Part shown: one piece after another, positions 34,121 through 60,850 of the stretch
How positions within the stretch are numbered: the stretch's first letter is position 1
Layout: the number at the start of each line of letters is the position of its first letter
Assembly (NCBI RefSeq): GCF_004210375.1
Contig: NC_134831.1
Span: forward strand, 98,959,522-99,023,521
DNA from: Tachypleus tridentatus
Lineage: Eukaryota
Reading direction: 5' to 3'
Length of the DNA stretch: 64,000 nt
Translations under genes and position numbers: made by a program
The notes under the pieces: generated by a model
Told to the model about the DNA's origin: nothing
Databases searched by the model: none
Seen by the model: only the letters and a program-made list of their open reading frames with translations

Positions 34121-35819
34121 TTTCTGATATGTATTTCCCTCTGCTCGTAAGATTAGCTATTCTAGGTAAGTGCTGCCCTCTATGTAAAAGTTTTTTCTTT
34201 ACACATGCCACAAGCCTTCTCTCCTCAATTGAAATTAAATGATTTCAACATGTCTCTCATGTAACTCATTATGTGTCACCTCTCCACTGATAGAAGCACA
34301 GACTACTCAAATGATGTATGTGACTCCCACTATGCACCTTTACTGAACTATCAGTTTAAAGTCACAGAAGACAGGTACACTCAAAGAGTGAGAGAAAAAA
34401 GTGTGAGTGGAGTATAGGAAAATTATAACTTCCGACACAAGATTAGCTAGAATTTGATTGATTAAGAGGAAGGACTGGTGCATGGAAAGAACAGATGTAT
34501 TCTTCAAAAGCATCTGAAGGATACCTCCACAGATAAAGAAAATTTGAAGAGAGGAACCACACCACTCCTGACTAGATATACTCTTCACCCATGTGTGGAA
34601 TGTGTACATCTGAGTGGGGAAAATGTAGCAGTAAAGTGATCTAACCAAAGAAGGATAATGTAATTCAATCTCACAATAAAAAAAATGGATAAACAACAAT
34701 GTTCCCCTGGATGTAGAGTGGTTATGGCACAGTGAACCATATTCGGTAAGACAATAACTTCCAAAACCTCTTCACAGGGTACCGACATCTTCACCAACCC
34801 TATTAACTAGAGAACTGAAAACTACTCTTCATTCCTGGATAGAAGCAGGATTGGCTCTGAACTATTGATCTGGAAATATGACATCCAGTTTTGAAAGGAT
34901 GTCTATTGTTGCTTGCAAACAACTTCCCCAACTGTGATACACATTGGAACCTTTCAAATGGCAAGAACATCCCCATAAGAAGAGATAATGAAAAATTGCC
35001 AAGGATAAAACCAGAACAATCCCATGTACCACAGCTGTGACCCACAACAGAAACAGAGAAAATCAAGGAAGGAAGACAGAGAACCCAAAACCTGTGTGAG
35101 GACTTACGTTGATTGGTTCACTTTAAATCCAACACCAGGCCACAGGGTACAAACGACCATGCAAAGGTAGGATGAGGGTTTCCCATCAAAAAGGTAAACT
35201 GCATTTGCGACGACTCAACTTCAGAGGGCATGTAAATGGTATCAGGAGGCCAAGTTGTACCCTGTAACACACAATCTCCTGATGCATAAAAACAAAATTA
35301 TCATCAGGTCACCCACACCTGAGGCTTGCCAAAAACTCTAGTTGCTGGTGTAGTCTCCAATATGGTATGGTTAAATTCTGAATTCATTGCATAGAAAGGT
35401 TCAACCAAACTTACATGCAGAAAGAATGCAACTTGAATCAACTGATAAACATAAATATAAAAACTGAGTTGAATAAATTAAACTATGTTAAGAAATAACC
35501 ACTTTGTGAGGAAAACAAAGTCAAACATGCAGAAATAAAGAACAAAACAGCATGCCTGAACGCAAGTGCTGCCAAACTTCAAAATAATAGTTTGTTAGAG
35601 TCACACAGAGGGAATCATATGTGTCATGTTAGTATTATATGCTCTCACTGATGGAGAGATGATGCATGATGATTCACATGAGAGACATGTTGGAATTATT
35701 TAATCCCAATAGGGGGAGCAGAAGGCTTGTGCCATAAGTAAAATAAAAATGTCATATAGGAGGCAGCAATAAATGAAAACAGTTAATCTTGTAAACAAAG
35801 AAAAGTACTGTATCAGAAG
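34121..35819. mobile_element. Non-autonomous element (~1.7 kb) bounded by ~180-bp terminal inverted repeats (left ~34121-34300, right ~35640-35819; roughly 75 percent identical in inverted orientation)
   Basis: Left arm ...ctgccctctatgtaaaag..acacatgccacaagccttctctcctcaattgaaattaaatgatttcaacatgtctctcatgtaactcattatgtgtcacctctccactgatagaagca. Reverse complement of right arm ...ctgcctcctatatgacatttttatttacttatggcacaagccttctgctccccctattgggattaaataattccaacatgtctctcatgtgaatcatcatgcatcatctctccatcagtgagagca. Outermost ends ttctgatatgta / tactgtatcagaag also pair. No clear target-site duplication; internal ORFs have no recognisable domains. Confidence 0.5.
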
Positions 35820-36942
35820 CTACACAATGGGCAACCTGTGCTGTGCTCACAGTGGGTATCAAAACCCAATATCTAGAATTGTTAGTTTGTAGGCATACTG
35901 CTGAGCCACTGGGAAGCACACTACTCATGAATTACTACACAGCTAGTGTTACATACATGAGCTAATTACCTGTTCTTGAATTCAAAATGCAAGTACTTTA
36001 AGTCAAAGCATGCATATTAAGTTAAGATTCTTACTGTCTTTTTCTAAAATTTCCTGAACAAATAGTCAAGAAGTCATGCATGTATGTCATTTATCAAGTC
36101 CCTTTTGTTTTAGCCTACAAAATATGGTAGTTAGATTGTTAAAAATTCTGAGAATTTAGTATGTAAAAATAAGTGTGACATAAATTATAATCAGTAACTT
36201 TATATCAACAACCACTTCACTGAATACTAAAGACAATTTTCTAACAATCTCATTAAATAACTTTGTATATATAAAACTGTGGAACAAAAACTTGCAGAGT
36301 TCTATTAATATTTCAAGGTCATCAGATAAACTGTTATTTTATAATCGTCTTTCTTAAGAGGCTTTGACTTCCTTCTTGTTTATCTAAGAGTAAAACTTAT
36401 TTAATAAAATATTTTTTTCACATATACTTCCTTTGTCATAAGTAAAACCAAAAATATATATATTTAAATATCTTGTAAACACTTTACTACAATAAACAAG
36501 TTTTTAATTTTGTTGGGTTGTTTTCTTGTAGTTGAGGCTTCATCCCATTCTAAATCTATAAAATATTTATAAGTGTATTTGTCTATCTTATGATTTGTTT
36601 TCACATGACAGCTACAAAACTTTGATATGCTTTTCCATGAACTAAAATAAATAAAACAGTTTTTGAGGATTTATGTTTCAATAAATGATCCATTCTCAGA
36701 TAAACTGATAAAAATTATATGAAGCTATATTTTAAAAGACATTGTTAAACATAATGATGTTTGTGCAGTGAGCTTGTGAAGTTAAGTGTAGATGTTTTTC
36801 GTATAATTAAGTAGAATTAGTCTGATGTTATGAATTTTACATTATAATATATAACACTCATGGAAATGGCAGTGTGAACACTAAATGTTACCTATTGCAA
36901 TTATATGTTAATAAGTTACGTATATTTTATAAAATTCTTTAC

Positions 36943-38065: not shown

Positions 38066-40674
38066 CAACTGGGTCATTCCATCTCAAATCATCCAGAGGG
38101 CTACAGGCGACCCCAACAGAATGCCTTGAAAAAGTTCACATGTGCTCATCTACCCATATAATGAAAAACTGCCAAAGATTAGATCAATATCTCTAATAGT
38201 TTCTGATTTACAGCCCTGTAAAATGTAGGTAATTTTGTTTTATTTTTGGCAAGAGTAATGGTGGTAGAATGCTGAGATTTACTACACTGACTGAATTAAT
38301 CTCACAGAATTCAAACATGGTCTCAAACCAAGTTTATCTCTCTTAGGAATTTCATAGTGAGGCTGTAAAATCACCTGAAAACCCAAAATTGTAAGAAACA
38401 TTGGTTTCTGTAATAAGTCATAGCCCTAAGACTTAATATGATACAAAGCTGAATATTGTTTTCTAATTTCCTATAACATATCAGTTGATAAATCAGCAAT
38501 TGTTGTTATTAAAAGTCTGTTAGATCTCCTGTACAAAAATGTAGCTGCAAGCAACTTTTTATGATGTAGCTCAAAATAGCCCTACTTCAGGCCACAGTTT
38601 GACCATGTCACCAGCTATTCAGCCTTTTCAGATTTTTACCATATATTCTTACATCACTGAATATGATCTACAAAAAAAAATCAGGATGGTGTACAACCTA
38701 ATTTTTGAGTTATAATTTTTTGAAAGTATCCTCTGACCATACGTTTTTTTTTTTTTTAAAAAATTCAGTTCAGGCGTGTTACTTTGTGCAAATATACCAT
38801 ACAATTTTGAAAAATACCTGTCAAAATTTTATGAATCCCACTTGAATATTCTAACCAGCCTTTCACAATGTAAAATAATGAAGTTGTAAGATACAAGAAA
38901 GAATTAATTCATTTCTGAACAAGTTTATTGGCATAACTAGTTAGATCACATGGCAATGCAAATATATTGTGTATGCATTACAGATATGGCTGAGTTTAAG
39001 AATCATAATATAATTAATTCAAAGGTAAATCAGACACAAAAAGCTCAGTGCTACAACAAAGGATAACTGAGAAAGAGTATAGTCACACCAAACTGCAATA
39101 ATCGTGACAATGAAATGTTCCAAAAACTGCTTTGGCGATAAATCAGCCTTAACAACATCAAATAAACATTGCTTTGTTCAGAAAGCTTGAATAAATTTCT
39201 GAAATTCAAGTTTGACTATGTTGAGGTCACTTTGACTTAGAACATAGTGGCATGCATATCTGCCTTGCATGGTAGGTGCACTATCAGACAAAGAATATGT
39301 TGGAAAGGAATCCAGCTTTCATCTTTATGTGACCTTGCAGGCCAAGAGAACAGTTCATTTCTTGATTTCTTCATAAATAACACCAACACATTGGAATGTT
39401 CATCTGATCTATCTTTTATGTTTCACACAACCATTCATGATCGTATATGCATGCTACATATTTCCCTGGCTGATAATTGTCATTGCTATCATTAGACTCT
39501 ATTTGAGCTGCTGTAGCATCACTTTCACTGCTACTACCAACAGTTACAACTGTGTACACATCATCACCTTCTCATATAGAATGTGTTGGTAGAATAAAGC
39601 TATGATGTGACCTAATACCTGCCACAGTTTTGTGTTTTTCATAGTGCTCAAGTTGATCAAACTTTACATAATTCTGCAGGACTGATTCCTGATTGACAAG
39701 AAAGAACTGAATGCCCTGAATGTGGTTCTTTGCCCAATGGTGCATATCAGAGACACTTAAAAATTGATAATTTATTATTTTTCACAACCTTGATTTTTTT
39801 TTAAGATCATGTTCAGAGATGTAAGAATATATGGTAAAGGCTGATTAGAATATTTCAATGGGATTCATAAATTATTTCAAAATTGTATGGATATATTTGC
39901 ACACAGTAACACACCTGACTTGAAGTGGTTTTTTTTTCCAAGTAAACAACATATGGTCAGGGGATACGTTAAAAAACTATAACTCAAAAAGTAGGTTGAA
40001 CACCATCTTGATTTTTATTGTAGATCATATTCAGAGATGTAAGAATATATGGTAAAAATCTGAAAAGGCTGAATAATTGGTGACATGGTCAAACTGTGAC
40101 CTGAAGTAGGGCTATTTTGAGCTACATCATAAAAAGTTGCTTGCAGCTACATTTTTTTACAGGAGATCTAACAGACTTTTAATTACAACAATTGCTGATT
40201 TATCAACTGATATGTTATAGGAAATTAGAAAACAATATTCAGCTTTGTATCATATTAAGTCTTAGAGCTATAGCTTATTAAATAAACCAATGTTTTTTTA
40301 TGATTTGGGGTTTTCAGGTGATTTTACAGCCTCACTATGAAAATCCTAAGAGAGATAAACTTGGTTTGAGACCATTTTTGAATTCTGTGAGATTAATTCA
40401 GTCAGTGTTGCAAATTTCAGCCTTCTACCACCATTAGTCTTGCAGCTTTAAGCAGCCAAAGTTGCACGAAAATGAATTTGCCAAAAATAACAAAAAATTA
40501 ACTAAAGTTTATAGGGCTCTAAATCAGAAGCTATTAGAGATATTGATCTTATCTTTGGTAATGTTTCATTATATGGGTAAATGAACACTTGTAAATTTTT
40601 TCAAGGCATTCCGAAGGGGTCACCTGGAAAATTGTCCAAAATCTGGATGATTTGACATGGAATGACCCAACTGT
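38066..40674. repeat. Foldback-type large inverted repeat: left arm ~38066-38866, right arm ~39835-40674 (about 800-840 bp each, ~85 percent identical as reverse complements) separated by a ~0.95 kb spacer. The right arm carries an extra ~38 bp internal duplication (39803-39840 vs 40020-40066)
   Basis: Example pairings: left gggtcattccatctcaaatcatccagagggctacaggcgaccccaacagaatgccttgaaaaagttcacatgtgctcatctacccatataatgaaa vs reverse complement of right gtttcattatatgggtaaatgaacacttgtaaattttttcaaggcattccgaaggggtcacctggaaaattgtccaaaatctggatgatttgacatggaatgaccc. Left gccacagtttgaccatgtcaccagctattcagccttttcagatttttaccatatattcttacatcactgaatatgatcta pairs with right tagatcatattcagagatgtaagaatatatggtaaaaatctgaaaaggctgaataattggtgacatggtcaaactgtgacc. 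Confidence 0.8.
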
Positions 40675-41458
40675 ATCCAGAATTAAGCCATCTAAAGACT
40701 ATCTTTTATCCTAAATGTCACAATATTATTTCACTGGTTCATATCCAAATCAATAACAACTACACAAAAGTAAAGAACAATAATAATATAAACAACCAGA
40801 CAAAGTTATCTCTTGATTTTTAGACAATTATAACATGTCTACATAAATTAGTGATATTTACAATTGTATGTTTTTCACTTCAAATAAGTGCTAGACCTTA
40901 CTGTTAAATTTGATTCAGAGAAACACGTTAACGATTAATTTGCAGTAGTAGCAATTGTATCATAAAAGAGCTATCTTGACAATATTCTGCTACAAAAACT
41001 TTCAACATATTTCTTCCAGCTTTTTGTATCTGAAAAAACAAAACACCTGTTCATCCCTACATATCGTCCTTAGCCTAATATTCAACCTACTTAGAATTAT
41101 ATCCCCAGAGTAACATCATGCCAATCTTTATTAATTACCCTTACATGCAACATTAGCCCCTATGTGAATAATAAAACTTTTGTCAATGCTACACCCTTTA
41201 TATTACCTCACTTACCTTATCATTTATGTCCTTCAACCACACTTCTGGTAATATGATTAACTAAGACATAGTTTCAAAAGCAACTACCAAATGTTTACAT
41301 TTGAATAATGACATGTTTGTCTGCTATACCACTGTCCTAATCTTAGAATTATCTCTGAGGTGCATATGTATTTCACCAGCTTTTCTTCTAAACTACTTAT
41401 ATAACAAATTCCTCATAGGTACATAACTGTTAGTAACATGTAAAGCACAAAAAAAAAT

Positions 41459-41733
41459 TAAACAAAAGGTAACTGTAACTATCCCTCTAATAACTGTTAA
41501 ACAAAAGGTAACTTTAACTATCCTTCTAATAACTGTTAAACAAAAGGTAACTGTAACTATTCTTCTAATAACTGTTAAACAAAAGGTAACTGTAACTATC
41601 CTTCTAATAACTGTTAAACAAAAGGTAACTGTAACTATTCTTCTAATAACTGTTAAACAAAAGGTAACTGTAACTATCCTTCTAATAACTGTTAAACAAA
41701 AGGTAACTTTAACTATCCTTCTAATAACTGTTC
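41459..41733. repeat. 39-bp minisatellite, ~7 copies (unit aacaaaaggtaactgtaactatccttctaataactgtta)
   Basis: Direct reading. The minus-strand ORF 41393..41779 with the 13-aa periodic VIRRIVTVTFCLT peptide is a by-product of this repeat. Confidence 0.92.
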
Positions 41734-44372: not shown

Positions 44373-45079
44373 ATGTTTGTGTATGATAAACTCAGTTATG
44401 CACAGCACTTATCAGTATATTATGCAGACATACAACAACTAATGAACAAGCATCCGTTTGCCTTCGCTCATTTCAAAGCTGGGTCTGCAGATAAACTCCT
44501 TCGTGTAAAAGAAACAAGAGAAAAGGCATACCAAGAATTAAAAAATAATCATCTTAAATCCCCAAAAAACTTCATGATAATATGATCAAACACAAGCTAA
44601 AAACATTTCCTAACCTCAAGGAGAGAAGTGTAGCTCAAAGGAGAAAGCCATTCGCTTGGCCACATGCTCATAACTGCATAGAAAAGAAACGTAACATTAA
44701 AGAAGTGCTCGCACACTCATTGTATTTATTTCCATGGTCACTAGCCAATTTTTATGGCTCACCATGGAAGATTAACAAGGCAGCTTTCAGCAGGGAAATG
44801 ACAAAGAATTTATCATCGGCAAAAAGTATTGCATCATTGGCGAAATGACATTTATTAACAAGGTAAGAGGAAACAACAAGATTTTTGCCGAATCAGCAGA
44901 ATATGCATTGTCAGTTATTTCACACGATGCAACAGTTGGTTGAAGGATTAATGTTTTTGATATCTACTGTGAATATGGAAAGACGTAACAGAAGGTCTGC
45001 AGCAGATCAAGTACAACAGAACAGTGAAGGAAATGTTTGGATAACTCAGAAAACAAAGAAAGGCTTATTACATTTCTGA
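44373..45079 (+). pseudogene. Three consecutive plus-strand ORFs (44373-44585, 44582-44848, 44885-45079) in shifting frames; unassigned, possibly a decayed gene or transposon ORF
   Basis: Contiguous ORFs separated by one frameshift and one stop, with slightly higher GC than surroundings. I recognise no domain, so this is weak. Confidence 0.12.
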
Positions 45080-45132
45080 CAACTAAGTGGAAGAAATAAA
45101 AGACTTTTTTTCTCATTTTCTGGTAGGTCAGT

Positions 45133-45392
45133 TTGGTTTGATTTGTTTTGAATTTCGTGCAGAGCTACACGAGGACTATCTGTGCTAGCAGTGTAAGACA
45201 AGAGGGAAGGCAGCTAGTCGTCATCACCCACCGCCAACTCTTGGGTTACTCTTTTACCAACGACTAGTGGGATTGGCCGTAACAGTATAATGTCCCCATG
45301 GCTGAAAGGGCGAGCATGTTTGGTGTGACGGGGATAGGTCAGTGGTAATTCTAATACCTTACAATGCTAAAAATCGGCTTGCGATACTCCTA
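45133..45392 (-). mobile_element. tRNA-derived SINE copy (minus orientation), variant with a different tRNA-like head
   Basis: Body tttgaatttcgtgcagagctacacgaggactatctgtgctagcagtgtaagacaagagggaaggcagctagtcgtcatcacccaccgccaactcttgggttactcttttaccaacgactagtgggattggccgtaac... is shared with the other copies. The head region ...ggggataggtcagtggtaattctaataccttacaatgctaaaaatcggcttgcgatactcc differs from the main family. Confidence 0.6.
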
Positions 45393-45703
45393 GTGAGCAG
45401 AGAACAGATAGCAATTGTATTTAATAACAAACTTTCTCTTTTTTATCGTGATTTCATAAAAAAATAAAATTCAAAATTACAATTACACTTTCTCTTATAT
45501 TTAAATATAATCAGGCAAGAAGCATATAATACAGGTTGTCGTTGAATTACCAAAGGTCATAAGATTTTATTCATTGTAGAATTTGAACATACATGTCAAG
45601 AAAACATTTGGAAACTTTGTTAATTATGTTTTTAATATTTAGTTATTTTTTATTTTGCAGGACGTGATGAACACATGACATCTTCAGTTTTCTGAAAACC
45701 TGG

Positions 45704-45969
45704 GGTTTGTTTTTTGGAATTTCGCACAAAGCTACTCGAGGGCTATCTGTGCTAGCCGTCCCTAATTTAGCAGTGTAAGACTAGAGGAAAGGCAGCTAGT
45801 CATTACCACCAACTCTTGGGCTACTCTTTTACCAACGAATAGTGGGATTGACCGTAACATTATACAACCCCACGGCTGGGAAGGCGAGCATGTTTAGCGC
45901 GACGCGAGCGCGAACCCGCGACCCTCGGATTACGAGTCGCACGCCTTACGCGCTTGGCCATGCCAGGCC
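45704..45969 (-). mobile_element. tRNA-derived SINE copy (minus orientation), flanked by ~9-bp target-site duplication aaaacctgg (45695-45703 and ~45972-45980)
   Basis: gtttgttttttggaatttcgcacaaagctactcgagggctatctgtgctagccgtccctaatttagcagtgtaagactagaggaaaggcagctagtcattaccaccaactcttgggctactcttttaccaacgaatagtgggattgaccgtaac...gcgaacccgcgaccctcggattacgagtcgcacgccttacgcgcttggccatgccaggcc. Poly-T (poly-A on minus) at the left, tRNA-like head at the right; direct repeats on both flanks. Confidence 0.8.
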
Positions 45970-46792
45970 TTAAAAACCTGGAGAGAAATATGTAACAATG
46001 TTTAAAGAACACTGCTTTCGAGATAGGTCTAGGATCAAAGGCCATGTCATAGCGTTTCTTGACTAACATTCAAACTGTTATTGAACTATTATTTTATGAA
46101 TTTATGTTATTAAGTTTGGGATATCAAACTATAGATTATAATTCAAATTTTCCTGTTATACATTATTTAGTTTGTTAGTTTAAAGGTAAATATTAAAAAC
46201 ACATCTAAACATCGACTTTTGTTTCTCATGGTGTGTTGAATGCATTACTGGTTCAAATTATATGTTTGTGAAGTCAAAATACTCAGTGTGTAACTTTGTA
46301 CGAATTATAAACTCAAATTACCAATATTGACAAACTAGAATACAAAATAATTACATCCCACCTTTTCTGTTTGCTGAGATATCGCTCTTGTACTGAATCA
46401 AATACAATGGTCCACTCACCACTTTCCAGTTTTGAAAACTGTCCCTTTTATACAGTCATATCTCTATATGACATGTAATAACCAATAGAAAGCAAAGAAT
46501 GCTTCTTTAGTGTTTTTTCTTAGCCATTTTCAAATACACTGCTGGCCAAAATCTTAAGGCCAATGAACATAAAGAAAAATATGCATTTTGCGTTGTTAGA
46601 CTCAACCACTTATTTGAGTAGAGCTTCGAAAGATGAAAATAAGAAAAAAGAAAGTAAAAATAAAAACTCTTTTAGCATTTAATAGGGAAAATGTGAACGC
46701 TATGAAATTAGCCTAAATACTAGCTGGTCAAAAGTTTAAGACAATACCAAAAAGAAGTCCTAAACAGGGTAGGAAATGCCAAACAAGAGGTC

Positions 46793-47801
46793 TCAGTAGT
46801 GAGTTGTACGGCCGTCATTGCAAATAACTTCAAAAATTCGCTTTGGCATGGTCGATATAAGCGTTTGCAGAAGGCTGGCTGGAATGTTATTCAAAGTGGT
46901 GAAGATGGCTTCACAAAAATTATGCATTATTTGGAATTGACGTCCATTTCTGTAGATTTCCCTTGTCATCCACCCCCAAACATTGTCAACGGGGTTCAGT
47001 TCAGGCGAACACGCTTGATGGTCCAAAAGAATCACGTTATTCGCCATGAAAAGTCCTTTGTCCTGCGGGCATTGTGGATTGCAACATTGTCCTGCTGAAA
47101 GATCCAGTCCACACAAGCGAGGGCCTTCAGTCAATAAGGATGCTCTCTCCAACATGCCAATGTAGCCTGCTGCTGTTTGACAGCCCTATATAACCTGAAG
47201 CTCCATTGTTCCATGAAAGGAGAAAAGCACCCCAGATCATGAAGGAACCTCCTCCACTGTGTCGTGTAGAAAATGTCTTCGGTTGGATATCCTTATCGTG
47301 CCAGTAACGTTAGAAGCCATCTGGACCATCCAGGTTAATTTTTTTCTCATCAGAGAACAAAACATTCTTCCACTTTTCTACATCCCATGTTTGGTGCTTC
47401 TCAGCAAAGTTTAACCGAGCTGTTTCATGGTGTGGAAGGAGACGTGGCCTTTGAAGATAGTTACAGTTTTTAAAGCCTTTCTCTCGTATATGCTGTCTTA
47501 TTGTTCTTGAGCCGCATTCTACGTCCGTAAAAGCCTTAATCTAGTTTGACGATCGGCTGGTGTCTTGCCGGACGACCCGTCGAATCCTCCTGCTCAACAC
47601 CAGCAAAATTTTCTTGGGCCGACCACTTGAAATTCTCGTTCCATATCCCTCAGGGTCTTTTAAGAAATTTGCAACAGCAGTTTTAAGACGTCCAATCTCA
47701 CCAACGATGGCACGTTGAGAGAGACCTTGCTTTTGCAGCTCCACAATTCTGCCACGCTCAAACTCTGTCAACGTTTTAGCCTTTGCCACGTATTTACCCA
47801 A
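46793..47801 (-). pseudogene. Tc1-like transposase, frameshifted into at least two ORFs (N-terminal helix-turn-helix ORF 47541-47801; C-terminal catalytic ORF 46793-47155)
   Basis: N-terminal part MGKYVAKAKTLTEFERGRIVELQKQGLSQRAIVGEIGRLKTAVANFLKDPEGYGTRISSGRPKKILLVLSRRIRRVV.. resembles Tc1/Sleeping-Beauty-type paired-like DNA-binding domains. C-terminal part ..NNVILLDHQACSPELNPVDNVWGWMTREIYRNGRQFQIMHNFCEAIFTTLNNIPASLLQTLISTMPKRIFEVICNDGRTTHY aligns to the Tc1 motif ..[25 protein letters not shown]...MPRR...AVI.AKGG.TKY. The central catalytic region is broken by frameshifts, and the third catalytic residue reads D (NPVD) instead of E. Confidence 0.8.
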
Positions 47802-48116
47802 TGTAACACAGGAGATGTCAGTGGGAGATATTGATAACGCTAATGCTTGAACACAAATGACTAAATTTCGTTACGTGTTTACAGATTAACGCTTCGTTTC
47901 TGTACGGTTTTAAACGTTTGACCAGCTAGTATTTAGGCTAATTTTATAGTGTTTACATTTTCCGTATTAAATGCTAAAAAGTTTTTTAATTTTATTTTCC
48001 TTTTCTTATTTTCATCTTTCGAAGCTCTACTCAAATAAGTGGTTCAGTCTAACAACGCAAAATGCGTATTTTTTCTTTATATTCATTGGCCTTTAGATTT
48101 TGGCCAGCAGTGAACA

Positions 48117-48396
48117 TTAACTTGTTTGTTTGTTTGGAATTTCGCACAAAGCTACTCGAGGGCTATCTGTGCTAGCCGTCCCTAATTTAGCAGTGTAAAA
48201 CTAGAGGGAAGGCAGCTAGTCATCACCACCCACCGCCAACTCTTGGGCTACTCTTTTACCAACGAAAAGTGGGATTGACCGTCACATTATACGCCCCCAC
48301 GGCTGGGAGGGCGAGCATGTTTAGCGCGACGCGGGCGCGAACCCGCGACCCTCGGATTACGAGTCGCACGCCTTACGCGCTTGGCCATGCCGGGCC
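48117..48396 (-). mobile_element. tRNA-derived SINE copy (minus orientation) nested in the Tc1 3' inverted repeat; 11-bp target-site duplication agcagtgaaca at 48106-48116 and 48397-48407
   Basis: Sequence ttaacttgtttgtttgtttggaatttcgcacaaagctactcgagggctatctgtgctagccgtccctaatttagcagtgtaaaactagagggaaggcagctagtcatcaccacccaccgccaactcttgggctactcttttaccaacgaaaagtgggattgaccgtcac...gcgaacccgcgaccctcggattacgagtcgcacgccttacgcgcttggccatgccgggcc. An identical 11-mer on both sides includes the Tc1 terminal CAGTG. Confidence 0.8.
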
Positions 48397-50004
48397 AGCA
48401 GTGAACAAAAATGGACATCTCTTTCTTTCGAAACAAACATTCGTACTGGTAAGTTGAGTTCTTAGCCTGTTTGAAATATATTTTATTAAACCCAAATAGA
48501 GCTAAGTTACTAAATTATAAAGGAAACCTGTGATATCGATATAGTAATTTATGTTTTTTGTTATTCAAATATATGTATAAAATCTATAAATACAATTCAC
48601 ATTTTCCACATGTGCATTTTTTACAGCTTAGTAGGCTTCAAGCAGCAACCAAGTACAAAGGACAGAATTAGTGAGTAGTTCATAATAAGAAATGGCGCAC
48701 AGAAGATATCGCTAGTAGTTTTACAGTTAAACAAAATGCAAATATGATTTTTTGTATTATTTCAATTTTTCTGTTGTCGTCAAAATATAGTTTGTTTGAT
48801 CTGGTTTTCAATGAAATTATCCCTGTTCTTAACCCTACTTCCGTTCTTTTAACTCTTCTGTCAAATTCTTACCTCTTAATCTTTCTACAATTGTTATGGT
48901 CTTGTGTTAATTGTTTTCCTGTCATTTTTCTCTCAATTTTTAACTATTTCCAACAAATTCCTGTTTTAACTCTTATTATTTTAAAGTTACATCTAGTTGA
49001 GTCTTTTTTTTTTTTTATCAAAACAACTCCACTTTTGACACCAGAATTTTAACAGTTTCTATCGTCGGGCGAGTTTTTAGATTGCTGTTAAAAATCTTGC
49101 AAAGACCATTCCACTTGACGCTAACAAAAGCGAATTATTTATTTCACCATAAATACAAGTACTATAGGCAGGGTTCGTTGCTGTGACAAATTCCCAAATA
49201 AAACTTAACAATTCCTCAGTAACAAACTCTATAGTCTATACCTCTTGAAATCCAAGTTCCAAATACACACTAAAGTAGTTGATAAATATCATTTCACTGA
49301 AATCTTTAACGAAACCCGACTCCACGGGCCATCCAATCATGTACACGTAATATCTAAAGGTCATAGTTGCACCTATGTATAAACCGTAATAAAGATGACC
49401 GGTCACATGGTATCGAATGTTGCTAAGGTTAATACAACGTTCTTTCGAAGCCAGAAACCTCGAATGTAGTTACTTGGGTGTTTTAGACCGGAGAAAACGA
49501 CTTCCAAAGGTAACGTAAGTAACTATAGAGTATTTTTGTTTCTTGTATTATAAATATTTTTATTTGTGCATTACACATTATGCTCAGGCTATTTATTCCT
49601 TAGAAGGCTTAGCTTAAGCCCATTAGGTGAAACCTTTAGCATTATTTTTAATACTTGTATCTTAATTATTGTTTGTATTACAGAAAAGCTATACTGGGTA
49701 CCCTGATGTGTCCACCGCGAGTAGTTGAAGCCCAGATTTTAGAGTTGTTATTGTGTAAACTTATCACTGTCCCAGCAAGGACGTATCTTGATTAAATGAC
49801 TGGGTTACGAGAGCACTTTGAATGTCTTCAGATATGCTAGCTTCTGTTTAAATAGAACCAGGACTTTAACATATCACTGTGTTTCATTATAGATCCACTA
49901 CTGTATGTGACGATTGTGCGTTGCCATATTTTAATTCCAATTTCCATTTTAGTTTTATTTCGAATTTTTCAACATTTAAGACAGTTCCGGAACGTAAACT
50001 AAAC

Positions 50005-50190
50005 AGCATTTACTCGTGTCCGACTGTGGGTTATTTTAAAGTGAAATTACACAGGACTATCTGCTGTGTCCCCAGAGGGAAATCGAACCCCAGGTTTTAA
50101 TGTTTTAAGTTTGTAAACGCACCGCTATCTCGCTGCAGGGAATCAAACCTTGAATTTTAGCATTGCAAGCGATAAACCAATAGGGACACG
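50005..50190 (-). mobile_element. Short SINE-related copy (minus orientation): partial family body (acacaggactatctgctgtg) followed by two tandem degenerate tRNA-like segments
   Basis: gtgaaattacacaggactatctgctgtgtccccagagggaaatcgaaccccaggttt...ctgcagggaatcaaaccttgaattttagcattgcaagcgataaaccaatagggacacgg. The reverse complement contains GGGGTTCGATTTCCC and GGTTTGATTCCC (B-box-like). The ttttagcattgcaag segment is shared with the head of the 45133-45392 copy. Confidence 0.45.
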
Positions 50191-50298
50191 GTTTCTTTTC
50201 GATTCATCTGCACATGTTCTTATTGTCACGTCCCATTCACGAAAATACTCGAATCTCTCGGTAGGCACGGTTAGCTTATATTAATCCTCCAAATCGCG

Positions 50299-50563
50299 AG
50301 GCCCAGCATGGCCAAGTGGTTAAGGCACTCGACTCGTAATCCGAGGGTCCCGGGTTCGAATCCCTGTCAGACCAAACGTGCTCGCTCTTTCAGGCATGGG
50401 GGCGTTATAATGATACGACCAATCCTACTATTCGTTGATAAAAAGAGTAGCCCAAGAGTTGGCGGTGATGACTAACTGCCTTCCGTCTAGACTTACACTG
50501 CTCAAGTGGGGACGACGAGCGCAGATAGCTCTTGTGTAGCTTTGCGCGAAATTAAAAAAAAAA
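50299..50563 (+). mobile_element. tRNA-derived SINE copy (plus orientation): best-preserved tRNA-like head, then family body, then A-rich tail
   Basis: GGCCCAGCATGGCCAAGTGGTTAAGGCACTCGACTCGTAATCCGAGGGTCCCGGGTTCGAATCCCTGTCAGACC followed by the reverse complement of the shared body (..gatacgaccaatcctactattcgttgataaaaagagtagcccaagagttggcggtgatgactaactgccttcc..gcagatagctcttgtgtagctttgcgcgaaatt) and aaaaaaaaaa. The anticodon arm is non-canonical (CTCGACTCG duplication), so this is not a functional tRNA gene. Confidence 0.8.
50308..50362 (+). promoter_or_regulatory. Putative internal Pol III promoter of the SINE: A box TGGCCAAGTGG (50308-50318) and B box GGTTCGAATCC (50352-50362)
   Basis: Matches the consensus A box TRGCNNAGTGG and B box GGTTCGANTCC with tRNA-like spacing. 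The other SINE copies carry mutated B boxes (GGTTCGCGCCC). Confidence 0.5.
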
Positions 50564-53980: not shown

Positions 53981-54938
53981 ACAGTTCTAGTTATTACCTA
54001 CCACAGTAAGATGGCCATACAGTTCTAGTTATTACGTATGTACTTACCACAGTAAGATGGCCATACAGTTCTAGTTATTACGTATGTACCTACCACAGTA
54101 AGATGGCCATACAGTTCTAGTTATTATGTATGTACCTACCACAGTAAGATGGCCATACAGTTCTAGTTATTACGTATGTACCTACCACAGTAAGATGGCC
54201 ATACAGTTCTAGTTATTACGTATGTACTTACCACAGTAAGATGGCCATACAGTTCTAGTTATTACGTATGTACCTACCACAGTAAGATGGCCATACAGTT
54301 CTAGTTATTATGTATGTACCTACCACAGTAAGATGGCCATACAGTTCTAGTTATTACGTATGTACCTACCACAGTAAGATGGCCATACAGTTCTAGTTAT
54401 TACGTATGTACCTACCACAGTAAGATGGCCATACAGTTCTAGTTATTATGTATGTACCTACCACAGTAAGATGGCCATACAGTTCTAGTTATTACGTATG
54501 TACCTACCACAGTAAGATGGCCATACAGTTCTAGTTATTACGTATGTACCTACCACAGTAAGATGGCCATACAGTTCTAGTTATTACGTATGTACCTACC
54601 ACAGTAAGATGGCCATACAGTTCTAGTTATTATGTATGTACCTACCACAGTAAGATGGCCATACAGTTCTAGTTATTACGTATGTACCTACCACAGTAAG
54701 ATGGCCATACAGTTCTAGTTATTACGTATGTACCTACCACAGTAAGATGGCCATACAGTTCTAGTTATTACGTATGTACCTACCACAGTAAGATGGCCAT
54801 ACAGTTCTAGTTATTACGTATGTACCTACCACAGTAAGATGGCCATACAGTTCTAGTTATTATGTATGTACCTATCACAGTAAGATGGCCATACAGTTCT
54901 AGTTATTACGTATGTACTTACCACAGTAAGATGGCCAT
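53981..54938. repeat. 46-bp minisatellite, ~21 copies (unit ccacagtaagatggccatacagttctagttattacgtatgtaccta), with three unit subtypes (..cgtatgtaccta, ..tgtatgtaccta, ..cgtatgtactta)
   Basis: Direct reading. The T-subtype recurs at 54125, 54310, 54448, 54632 and 54862, that is every 3-5 units. The plus-strand ORF 54862..55119 starts inside the last units and is an artefact. Confidence 0.95.
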
Positions 54939-55920
54939 CCTTGCCTTTGGTAATCTCAGGATTTATTCCTTTACAAAAGTTTATAATTCCTTGTTTGCCA
55001 CTTGCCAGATAATGAGGTATGCTGCAAAAATTCAGCCAGGTTTTAACAATTTATCTTACCATAAAAAAACCAACAAATCCCATATTATATGTTTGGTCAC
55101 AAGTCACAAACTGATTTAACACTTTATTAATGAACTTGAGTCTTCCATTTGAAGAAAAATGAAACTAGTGATATGATTAAGTAATTTTATATTCTGTCTA
55201 AATCTGATTTGTTTGTTACAGTATAGTTAAGCTGTATTTAAATTTGTTAGCAAGCCAAAAGCCCTTCAAATAACAGAGATTTTTTATTAATAAAGATAGT
55301 GTGTTTATTACTTCTGTATACTTTTTATATTCCACCTCAGATACAATACCTACTTATTGATTATATATATAAACTATAAATTATTGTTTGGATATTATAA
55401 GTCTCACCATCCTGATTCTTCCACTTTTACTAAAGATTTTCTATTGCTGGCCATAACAATTTTTACAACTACTTCCACCAGATGGTCTCTACAGTCCAGA
55501 ATTAAGTCACCCTGCAAATATAATTTAAAAAATTAAAATGTCAATATGCCTCTAAACCAATGATGAAACTTAAACAAAATCGATGACTGAATCCTGAAAA
55601 AGAAATAACATAATAGTCAAGACACAATACTGAACAAATCATTCTGTTCATGATCAGTTTATTTCAAATCTTCCAGTACAATAATGTTGATTAAGCACTC
55701 ATGAAATAAGATGGTTTATTTTTCCATATTTATGGCCAAATCTAACTCCTCCAATATCAACAAAACAAAGAAAAATACTAGGAATTCAAATAGAAAAACC
55801 TAGTACAATTACAAATAATGTTCCTTAATAAAATATTAAGTCAATAAATTAAAACTACTTTGGAATATTTTTGAAATCCTACACTGAATTGGTCACTCTT
55901 TTCCTACCACCGCATTAAAT

Positions 55921-56070
55921 AAACAGTTATATAATTAAACCTGTAACGTTTTGGACATTCTGTCAGATTTTCTAATTATTATCACTATACCTTATAAACA
56001 GTTATATTATTAAACCTGTAACGTTTTGGACATTCTGTCAGATTTTCTAATTATTATCACTATACCTTAT
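55921..56070. repeat. 75-bp tandem duplication (2 copies)
   Basis: aaacagttatataattaaacctgtaacgttttggacattctgtcagattttctaattattatcactataccttat occurs twice with one mismatch. Confidence 0.85.
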
Positions 56071-56934
56071 AAAACTTCTGGTCTGTTTATAAAACGTTGT
56101 TAATAACACGGTTTGGATTAGTTTTCGGCTAAAGAGAAATAAATGTTATTGGATGCTGTCAATGGGTAAATTAGGATTTTTGGGTGGGTACTGTCAATGT
56201 CTACTCAGGTTTAAGGAGTGACGTCAAATATTTTTGTGACAATGTGAATTGACAATTTATTCTTTCAAACTACAAACAAATTTTTAAGACACTTGAATTT
56301 ATAAGGTTTTATTTAGACAATTATAGAGACAATGCTAATAAAATGTAATTTTGTTTAAACATAAGAAATAACAATAAAAACAAGTTTAATAGAGAACTTA
56401 TTATGGATTATAAACTTTTTCTTGTTACAGAGGCTCATTTGATTAGGTACTATAATACTATTCTCCAGAGGCATAAAAGCATGGTTCTCATCAAACATTT
56501 TAACAAGCCAGTTTAAGGTAACTGTATAACTCTGTAAAAGAGATTTAAACCTGTTTTTATATAAATAATGATGATAGTAGTTTAAAAAACGTTTGATAAT
56601 TAATTTTAGTGAGACTACAATTTTATTAAATTGACCATATTAATGGTAAGTTAAGTATGAAAGCTCTGATTTTTTTTGCGAGTACATAATGTGCACAGCA
56701 GATGGCAGTGTATCCAATGTTACTGATCAGTCAAGACAGCTAAATGGATCTCTTACAGAAGATTTTAAAATGAGAATCACATATAACCTGAAAAAACATT
56801 GTATATAATTCCACTTTGTTTATTAAACCAACAGTTTTTCCAAAAGTCGTGGTGGTGATTATGGTATGACACCGTACATGTTTTTTTTATGTTTTTGAAA
56901 TTGAATTGTAAATATAAAATTATACTATGGTGTA

Positions 56935-57620: not shown

Positions 57621-58557
57621 GGTAAGAAAGACAAAAGTTCCAGCTTTATAGATATAATAGTGATATATAAGCTAATGAATAAGTTTTGCCAGACACAGTT
57701 TAGACTTTATAGACATGGAACTATTACATAATAAGACATAATCAGTTAAGGGAGACAAAGTTTCAACTTTATAGATATAATAGTGATATATAAGCTAATT
57801 AATAAGTTATGCCAGACACAGTTTAGACTTTATAGACATGGAACTATTACATAATAAGACATAATCAGTTAAGGGAGACAAAGTTTCAACTTCAAAGATA
57901 GTGAACTGCTACATGAGAAGATACAATCACTTAAGATAAGCCAAAGTTGTAACTTCAAAGATAGGGAACTGCTACATGAGAAGATACAATCCCTTAAGAT
58001 AAGCCAAAGTTGTAACTTCAAAGATAGGGAACTGATACATGAGAAGATACAATCACTTAAGGTAAGCCAAAGTTGTAACTTCAAAGATAGGGAACTGATA
58101 CATGAGAAGATACAATCACTTAAGGTAAGCCAAAGTTGTAACTTCAAAGATAGGGAACTGATACATGAGAAGATACAATCACTTAAGGTAAGCCAAAGTT
58201 GTAACTTCAAAGATAGGGAACTGCTACATAAAAAGATACAATCATTTAAGGTAAGCCAAAGTTGTAACTTCAAAGATAGGGAACTGCTACATAAGAAGAT
58301 ACAATCACTTAAGATAAGCCAAAGTTGTAACTTAAAAGACAGGGAACTGCTACATGAGAAGATACAATCACTTAAGATGAGCCAAAGTTGTAACTTCAAA
58401 GATAGGGAACTGATACATGAGAAGATACAATCACTTAAGGTAAGCCAAAGTTGTAACTTCAAAGATAGGGAACTGATACATGAGAAGATACAATCACTTA
58501 AGATAAGCCAAAGTTGTAACTTCAAAGATAGGGAACTGCTACATGAGAAGATGCAGT
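57621..58557. repeat. Complex intronic minisatellite: 122-bp unit x2 (57627-57870) followed by a related 63-bp unit x~10.6 (57889-58557; unit ggaactgctacatgagaagatacaatcacttaagataagccaaagttgtaacttcaaagata)
   Basis: Direct reading. The 63-mer shares its ...aagggagacaaagtttcaactt.aaagata core with the 122-mer. Minus-strand ORF 57869..58525 (218 aa, 21-aa periodic LKLQLWL.LSDCIFSC.SSLS) and plus-strand ORF 58377..58559 are repeat artefacts. The array lies in the intron between the myosin exons at 59066-59207 and 57374-57444. Confidence 0.9.
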
Positions 58558-60513: not shown

Positions 60514-60689
60514 CTTAAAATAATACATGCCTATGTATTATAACAGAGATTACTTTGCTTATAGAACACAAAGGTTAGTTGTTTTTGTATGTTGATGATA
60601 AAGCTACTGGGATTACATGCTACTGTTCCTAATTTTGAATTGTCAGTCATAAGGAAGAAAACTGGTTAGCATCTTCTGACATAAAATCT

Positions 60690-60850
60690 TGGGCTACTCT
60701 TTAAAATGAATAGTGGGATTAACTGTAACATTACAATGCTCCCACAGCTTAAAGGACTAGCATGTTCAATGATTGGTTTAGATCTTACAACTTTGCAGAT
60801 GGTAAGTTGAGTGTCCTAATCATCAGGCCCAATAGCTGTTAGCTTACTTT
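60690..60850 (-). mobile_element. Degenerate SINE fragment of the same family (intronic)
   Basis: cttgggctactctttaaaatgaatagtgggattaactgtaacattacaatgctcccacagcttaaaggactagcatgttcaatgattggttt... parallels cttgggctactcttttaccaacgaatagtgggattgaccgtaacattata...ccacggctgg.aaggcgagcatgttt. Confidence 0.35.

Follow-up and report, generated by a model that had tools for sequence, protein, structure and literature searches.

Does a single retroposon body travel with different, exchangeable tRNA-like heads? The question is raised by a 64-kb stretch of eukaryotic DNA from Tachypleus tridentatus (contig NC_134831.1), which as a whole we call the window. In its interval 45133-50563 a sequence-only reading had described five copies of a short interspersed element (SINE), with one conserved body and heads of three kinds, and had taken this to point to modular subfamilies or template switching. 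The answer that we favour, with a probability of about 0.85, is less exotic: the elements belong to an ordinary tRNA-derived SINE family, for which we use the working name SINE1, whose heads have diverged in two subfamilies, and one truncated copy of which is nested in a member of a second, older tRNA-like SINE family (working name SINE2), to which the segment 50005-50190 also belongs. Outside its satellite, the window is AT-rich and contains many interspersed and tandem repeats.

To delimit the family, each proposed copy was compared with the window by BLAST, and the window was searched with nhmmer profiles with the filters off. The three copies at 50300-50563 (plus strand, copy C), 48117-48396 (minus strand, copy B) and 45704-45969 (minus strand, copy A2) are full length, at 264-280 bp fall within the SINE size range, and align with one another from end to end with BLAST E-values of 1e-62 to 1e-117. 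They are thus as they had been described, the first of them as 50299-50563, including the A-rich or (CAAA)n tails; the head and body strings quoted for them are likewise present in the sequence, except that copy A2 differs from the quoted GC-rich head at two positions. Copies B and A2 are about 96% identical without gaps, or 93% when a 7-nt indel is counted, and with copy C each shows about 79-80% identity by BLAST. The BLAST match of the copy proposed at 45133-45392 to SINE1, by comparison, begins only at about element position 60-65. Its body is present, and only 45133-45334 (minus strand, copy A1) is SINE1, 5'-truncated in the T-loop of the head, with a 15-nt deletion in the body and a (CAAA)-like tail. 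One further copy, degraded and 5'-truncated (copy F, minus strand), was found by the window search at 60576-60767, outside the interval, where it matched model positions 91-288 with an nhmmer E-value of 2e-18. Of the five copies claimed for the interval four therefore stand, because 50005-50190 shares nothing with the family.

Multiple alignments give SINE1 a length of about 265 nt, made up of a head of about 73 nt, a body of about 190 nt in which the strings AAACATGCTCGCCC, AATCCCACTATTCGTTGGTAAAAGAGTAGCCCAAGAGTTGG and GACTAGCTGCCTTCCCTCTAGTCTTACACTGCTAAATTAGGGACGGCTAGCACAGATAGCCCTCGTGTAGCTTTGTGCGAAATTC follow one another, and a tail that is A-rich or (CAAA)n in all four well-preserved copies (AAAAAAAAAACAA, CCAAACAAACAAACAAG, CCAAAAAACAAACC and CAAAACAAATCAAACCAAAC). 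In none of the copies does an open reading frame span the entire element, and the longest, in copy B, has about 67 codons. The sequences flanking the copies are mutually unrelated, similarity ends at the element boundaries, and copies occur on both strands. SINE1 is a real family, with homology between its copies and boundaries that can be placed.

The head of this element resembles a tRNA. In copy C it scores 30.9 bits against the Rfam tRNA model at 50308-50367, exceeding the gathering score of 29; copy B reaches 19.3 bits, and the Rfam alignment puts CGU in the anticodon loop. ARAGORN with its threshold relaxed to 90% reads the B-type head as tRNA-Thr(cgt), and at 80% it reads the C-type head as an aberrant Thr/Tyr-like structure. 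The D-arm and the anticodon loop presumably resemble those of a eukaryotic tRNA-Thr(CGU). Type 2 promoters of RNA polymerase III (pol III) have an A box with the consensus TRGCNNAGTGG, to which copy C has an 11/11 match at 50309-50319 (plus strand, TGGCCAAGTGG); its B box at 50353-50363 (plus strand, GGTTCGAATCC) is an exact match to GGTTCGANNCC, and the two boxes are 44 nt apart, start to start. By these scores and boxes the SINE1 head is tRNA-derived, its likely source being a tRNA-Thr(CGU)-like gene. Rfam also reported a match to its 'Plastid-ycf2 5'UTR' family at 50300-50375 on the minus strand, antisense to the head, which, as it reaches 34.5 bits where the gathering score is 65.7 bits, we took for tRNA-like sequence read in reverse.

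The ends of the copies bear the marks of retroposition. Exact target-site duplications of 9-11 bp lie directly at the ends of three SINE1 copies: copy B is flanked by AGCAGTGAACA at 48106-48116 and 48397-48407 (11/11), copy A2 by AAAACCTGG at 45695-45703 and 45973-45981 (9/9), and copy A1 by TAGGTCAGT at 45124-45132 and 45335-45343 (9/9). In the case of copy B the target can be recognised as a degraded Tc3/Tc1-like DNA transposon at 46537-48112 (minus strand), with 221-bp terminal inverted repeats that are 89.6% identical and a transposase with several frameshifts and stops, in which the Pfam domains HTH_Tnp_Tc3_2 and DDE_3 are found; when this transposase is stitched together, the best external proteins, from short metagenomic contigs and fish or amphipod entries, are only 72% identical to it. 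Since copy B has inserted across the right terminus of the transposon, which its duplication straddles, it is the younger of the two. Two SINE1 copies, A1 and F, are truncated at the 5' end. Such duplications, tails and truncations are hallmarks of pol III transcripts reverse-transcribed by the machinery of a long interspersed element (LINE), the enzymology being our inference. A source copy would be transcribed by pol III from the A and B boxes inside its head, and the RNA would then be copied at a nicked target by a LINE-encoded endonuclease and reverse transcriptase (target-primed reverse transcription), with a duplication of 9-11 bp, and sometimes a 5'-truncated copy, as the expected outcome. 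Both the pol III transcription and the LINE dependence of SINE1 are read here from the form of the copies. The assignment to a tRNA-derived SINE family, made earlier from the sequence alone, is borne out by the Rfam score, the relaxed ARAGORN calls, the duplications, the tails and the 5' truncation.

If heads had been exchanged between full-length copies, the two head versions would be expected to be non-homologous. The head of copy C aligns with that of copy B without a gap over 74 positions, 57 of which are identical (77%), and the bodies of the same two copies agree at 150 of 178 positions (84%). The difference between head and body identity is not significant, with Fisher p = 0.21 for C against B and p = 0.12 for C against A2. 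Between the types head identity is 74-77%, and within the GC-rich type it is 97% (72/74 between B and A2); the anticodon arm and the variable region are identical throughout between the head of C and those of B and A2. As the heads are homologous without gaps and differ from one another no more, statistically, than the bodies do, they represent one head and not a swap. On these alignments, then, the two versions are a single sequence that appears to have diverged along with its body, without exchange, and the idea of exchangeable heads gives way to that of divergent copies of one sequence, an outcome that the sequence-only reading had itself named as grounds for refuting it.

The divergence of the heads has a pattern of its own. 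The 17 differences between C and B fall in clusters, in the D-loop, the 3' strand of the D-stem, the T-loop, the 3' strand of the T-stem and the 3' acceptor strand. In the head, A/T-to-G/C changes outnumber the reverse by 11 to 2, the corresponding counts in the body being 12 and 10. The heads of B and A2 (48322-48396 and 45895-45969) hold 14-15 CpGs in 74 nt, an observed/expected ratio of about 1.5, and copy C has 5. Canonical tRNA loops are found in copy C and in the head remnant of A1, and the D- and T-loops of the B-type (AAGCGCG and TTCGCGC) are non-canonical; the B-type also has aberrant A and B boxes. Because both copy C and the A1 remnant have the canonical form, the B-type loops look derived, as far as a comparison of three heads can suggest, although the acceptor and T stems are better paired in the B-type than in the C-type, which weighs the other way. 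SINE1 in the window comprises two subfamilies: an older type with canonical loops, represented by copy C and probably by the truncated A1, and a younger GC-rich and CpG-rich type, represented by B and A2.

This leaves the apparent third head. The motif ttttagcattg.aag next to copy A1 had been read as another SINE1 head; it is the reverse complement of CTTACAATGCTAAAA, a motif of SINE2. The SINE2 element has a head of about 75 nt with the motifs CAGTGGTAA and GGTTCGATTCC, followed by a 3' part of about 50 nt, and five degraded copies of it lie in the window. One of these (S2a, plus strand, about 45110-45449) is interrupted by A1: its 5' part ends at 45132, and its 3' part, at 45335-45449, lies on the strand opposite to A1. 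The homology of A1 to SINE1 stops at 45334, in the T-loop, and the next 9 nt, TAGGTCAGT, repeat those at 45124-45132, both copies of the duplication lying in the D-arm of S2a. When A1 is excised together with one copy of the duplication, the joined flanks align continuously with the other SINE2 copies through the D-arm. The apparent head is a flanking insertion target, because its orientation is antisense to the body and a perfect 9-bp target-site duplication separates the two; being antisense, it is also unable to supply a promoter for the SINE1 body. Thus an older SINE2 copy on the opposite strand received the truncated copy A1 in its D-arm, and nesting accounts for the apparent third head. 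Nested insertions of this kind are able to mimic 'modular' elements.

The remaining SINE2 copies account for the segment 50005-50190, which had been listed as a copy of the family with a truncated body. It has no similarity to SINE1 by BLAST or nhmmer, and consists instead of two abutting minus-strand pieces of SINE2, arranged head to tail: S2b at 50011-50134, which runs from the D-arm to the tail, and S2c at 50129-50199, which is a head only. The nhmmer match of S2b (E = 9e-29) arises by construction, because S2b is part of the model, and the evidence for this copy is the alignment. A fourth copy, S2d, at 49652-49799 (minus strand), was identified by profile search and alignment, and a fifth, S2e, at 35786-35940 (minus strand), was picked up (E = 7e-11) by a model built without it. 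The 3' end of S2e adjoins one member of an inverted pair of a repeat of about 240 bp (34122-34362 and 35576-35818, 71% identical).

How do these results weigh on other explanations of the locus? According to one of them, an exchange of modules, or template switching during reverse transcription, joined a single conserved SINE body to several tRNA-like heads that are not homologous to one another. Module swapping is an accepted phenomenon among SINEs (PMC5804259, PMC4758252, PMC3531059), and the head differences are plain to see, with an identity of 77% in the head and 84% in the body; against this, the two head types of the full-length copies can be aligned over 74 nt without gaps and have the same anticodon arm, at p = 0.21 for head against body, the 'third head' runs antisense to the body, an orientation in which it offers no pol III promoter, and lies outside a perfect 9-bp duplication, and the 'fifth copy' at 50005-50190 has no SINE1 body. 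We consider such an exchange very improbable at this locus. Only the slightest weight, in turn, can be given to the suggestion that the copies arose by local segmental or tandem duplication beside the satellite, or that they are tRNA-Thr genes with a conserved downstream sequence. The copies do lie within 5.5 kb of one another, some 12 kb from the 33-kb satellite, and one head exceeds the Rfam tRNA gathering score, but the flanks are unrelated and the similarity is confined to the element, three copies each have their own, different, perfect target-site duplication, and both strands are used; with respect to tRNA genes, ARAGORN at its default settings calls none in the window, copy C has a broken acceptor stem, and invariant tRNA residues are missing from the loops of B and A2.

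The reading of SINE1 as an ordinary tRNA-derived SINE, with heads that diverged in place and one copy nested in SINE2, also has a number of observations weighing against it. The heads are slightly more different than the bodies (23% against 16%), and the clustered, G/C-biased changes in the head, as they appear in the alignments, are not what plain neutral divergence would predict. With its default settings ARAGORN calls neither head as a tRNA, and the minimum-energy folds of the heads contain no cloverleaf, with z-scores (-0.7 to -1.95) that say little either way. The flanks of copy C show no clear target-site duplication, the best flank repeat being 6 bp, and neither a partner LINE nor a LINE 3' end like the SINE1 tail occurs in the 64-kb window. 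The sample, finally, consists of five copies, all from this one window.

A further possibility would supplement the explanation given above without replacing it. SINE1 may be composite, in that a SINE2-type element, or a LINE 3' end also carried by SINE2, could be the source of its last 55-70 nt or so (CTTACACTGCTAAA...AGCACAGATAGCCC.TCGTGTAGCTTTGTGCGAAATTC), such that the two families would have the same LINE partner and different heads. Similarity is seen between the 3' part of SINE2 (...GTGAGCACAGCACAGGTTGCCCATTGTGTAGCTT...) and the final 55 nt or so of SINE1 (...AGCACAGATAGCCC-TCGTGTAGCTTTGTGCG...), and likewise between CTTACAATGCTAAAA of SINE2 and CTTACACTGCTAAAT of SINE1. When the SINE2 copies were aligned locally to the SINE1 consensus and compared with 1000 dinucleotide shuffles, S2e (p = 0.002) and S2a (p = 0.007) stood out and S2b was marginal (p = 0.057), with the caveat that these tests are not independent, because the copies are few, old and mutually related. 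For four of the five SINE2 copies the best match fell within SINE1 positions 192-249, and there were no genuine antisense matches, the single antisense score being due to the overlap of S2a with copy A1. Scored with a profile built on the SINE1 3' module, S2a and S2b exceeded every one of 300 shuffles, and S2e matches AGCACAGgTtGCCCaTtGTGTAGCTT in 22 of 26 aligned columns. On the other side, the matched stretch is short, the nhmmer E-values at window scale are 1.7 to 2.8 and thus not significant, S2c and S2d gave no signal, and S2e was missed by nhmmer. We therefore propose a shared 3' module of SINE1 and SINE2 only tentatively, with the chances somewhat below even; it would fit a common LINE partner as well as a composite origin. 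A genuine module of this kind would indicate that the families have a LINE partner in common, and would add another case of the SINE module sharing that has already been described. A fuller version of the idea, which we find on balance rather doubtful, would make SINE1 a chimera in which a tRNA-Thr-derived head and a body were fused to a SINE2-type 3' part, and in whose younger subfamily the head was remodelled to a CpG-dense, better-paired, loop-aberrant tRNA mimic. Were this true, modules would be shown to have been shuffled between SINE families.

Compared with known elements, SINE1 is unremarkable in its architecture. A tRNA-derived SINE, as defined in SINEBase, is a non-autonomous, non-coding element of about 75-660 nt, and a head followed by a body whose origin is unknown and by a tail is the commonest SINE architecture recorded there, with a mean length of 253 nt (PMC3531059). 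SINE1 likewise has a length of about 265 nt, a head with A and B boxes, a body of unrecognised origin and a simple-repeat tail, together with target-site duplications, 5' truncations and subfamilies, and in this comparison of architecture no structural difference from generic tRNA-derived SINEs emerged. Among horseshoe crabs, Luchetti and Mantovani (2016) described 'Lipo', a tRNA-headed CORE-SINE of Limulus polyphemus with a consensus of 265 bp, the CORE-SINE superfamily being characterised by a CORE domain of about 65 nt directly after the tRNA-related head (PMC5804259). As far as the published description of 'Lipo' goes, SINE1 is like it in its length of about 265 nt and its tRNA-related head, and horseshoe crabs are also the group that the sequence-only reading had suspected as the source. 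A CORE domain was not apparent in the SINE1 body, since local alignment to the mammalian MIR consensus scored no better than shuffled sequence (z of about -1 to 0.2), with the reservation that this is a single reference and that invertebrate CORE domains are divergent. Mosaic or 'jigsaw' SINEs, with modules common to several families, are known from mollusc SINE superfamilies (PMC4758252), and HaSE1 and HaSE2 of Helicoverpa have a common 5' part and different tails (PMC3272025). SINE1 and SINE2 would possibly resemble these in having a common 3' module, for which the evidence is that given above, whereas the exchange of heads is not seen here.

Searches in external collections returned no relatives of the family. 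The longest SINE frame, of 67 amino acids, had no match in a protein database, and exact-pattern scans for conserved SINE1 motifs in metagenome, viral and prokaryote genome collections yielded no external copy. The single pattern match (L001) lay in a bacterial coding sequence and was dismissed as a chance 21-mer, and sequence strings looked up in full-text literature gave only primer coincidences. The main use of the results is likely to be in annotation and repeat masking, for which they provide a consensus, the boundaries and two subfamilies of a tRNA-Thr-like SINE, plus a second tRNA-like SINE family.

Several other repeats occur in the window. Frameshifted open reading frames at 44373-45100 (plus strand) look like a degraded transposon protein; when stitched together, this frame (44.4-45.1 kb) matched no Pfam family, and a search of the protein collection gave no homologue for it. 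An inverted pair at 38070-38863 and 39836-40669, with arms of about 800 bp that are 83.6% identical and lie about 1 kb apart, may represent two transposon copies or one element with long inverted ends. Four minisatellite arrays are present, at 41458-41732 (39-bp unit), 53995-54938 (46-bp unit, 20 copies, 98% matches), 55919-56073 (75-bp unit) and 57629-58552 (63/123-bp unit). The satellite itself takes up positions 1-33437 (33.4 kb), and is built of a 63-bp unit arranged as a 128-bp dimer with about 91% matches, each unit containing a (GA)n run.

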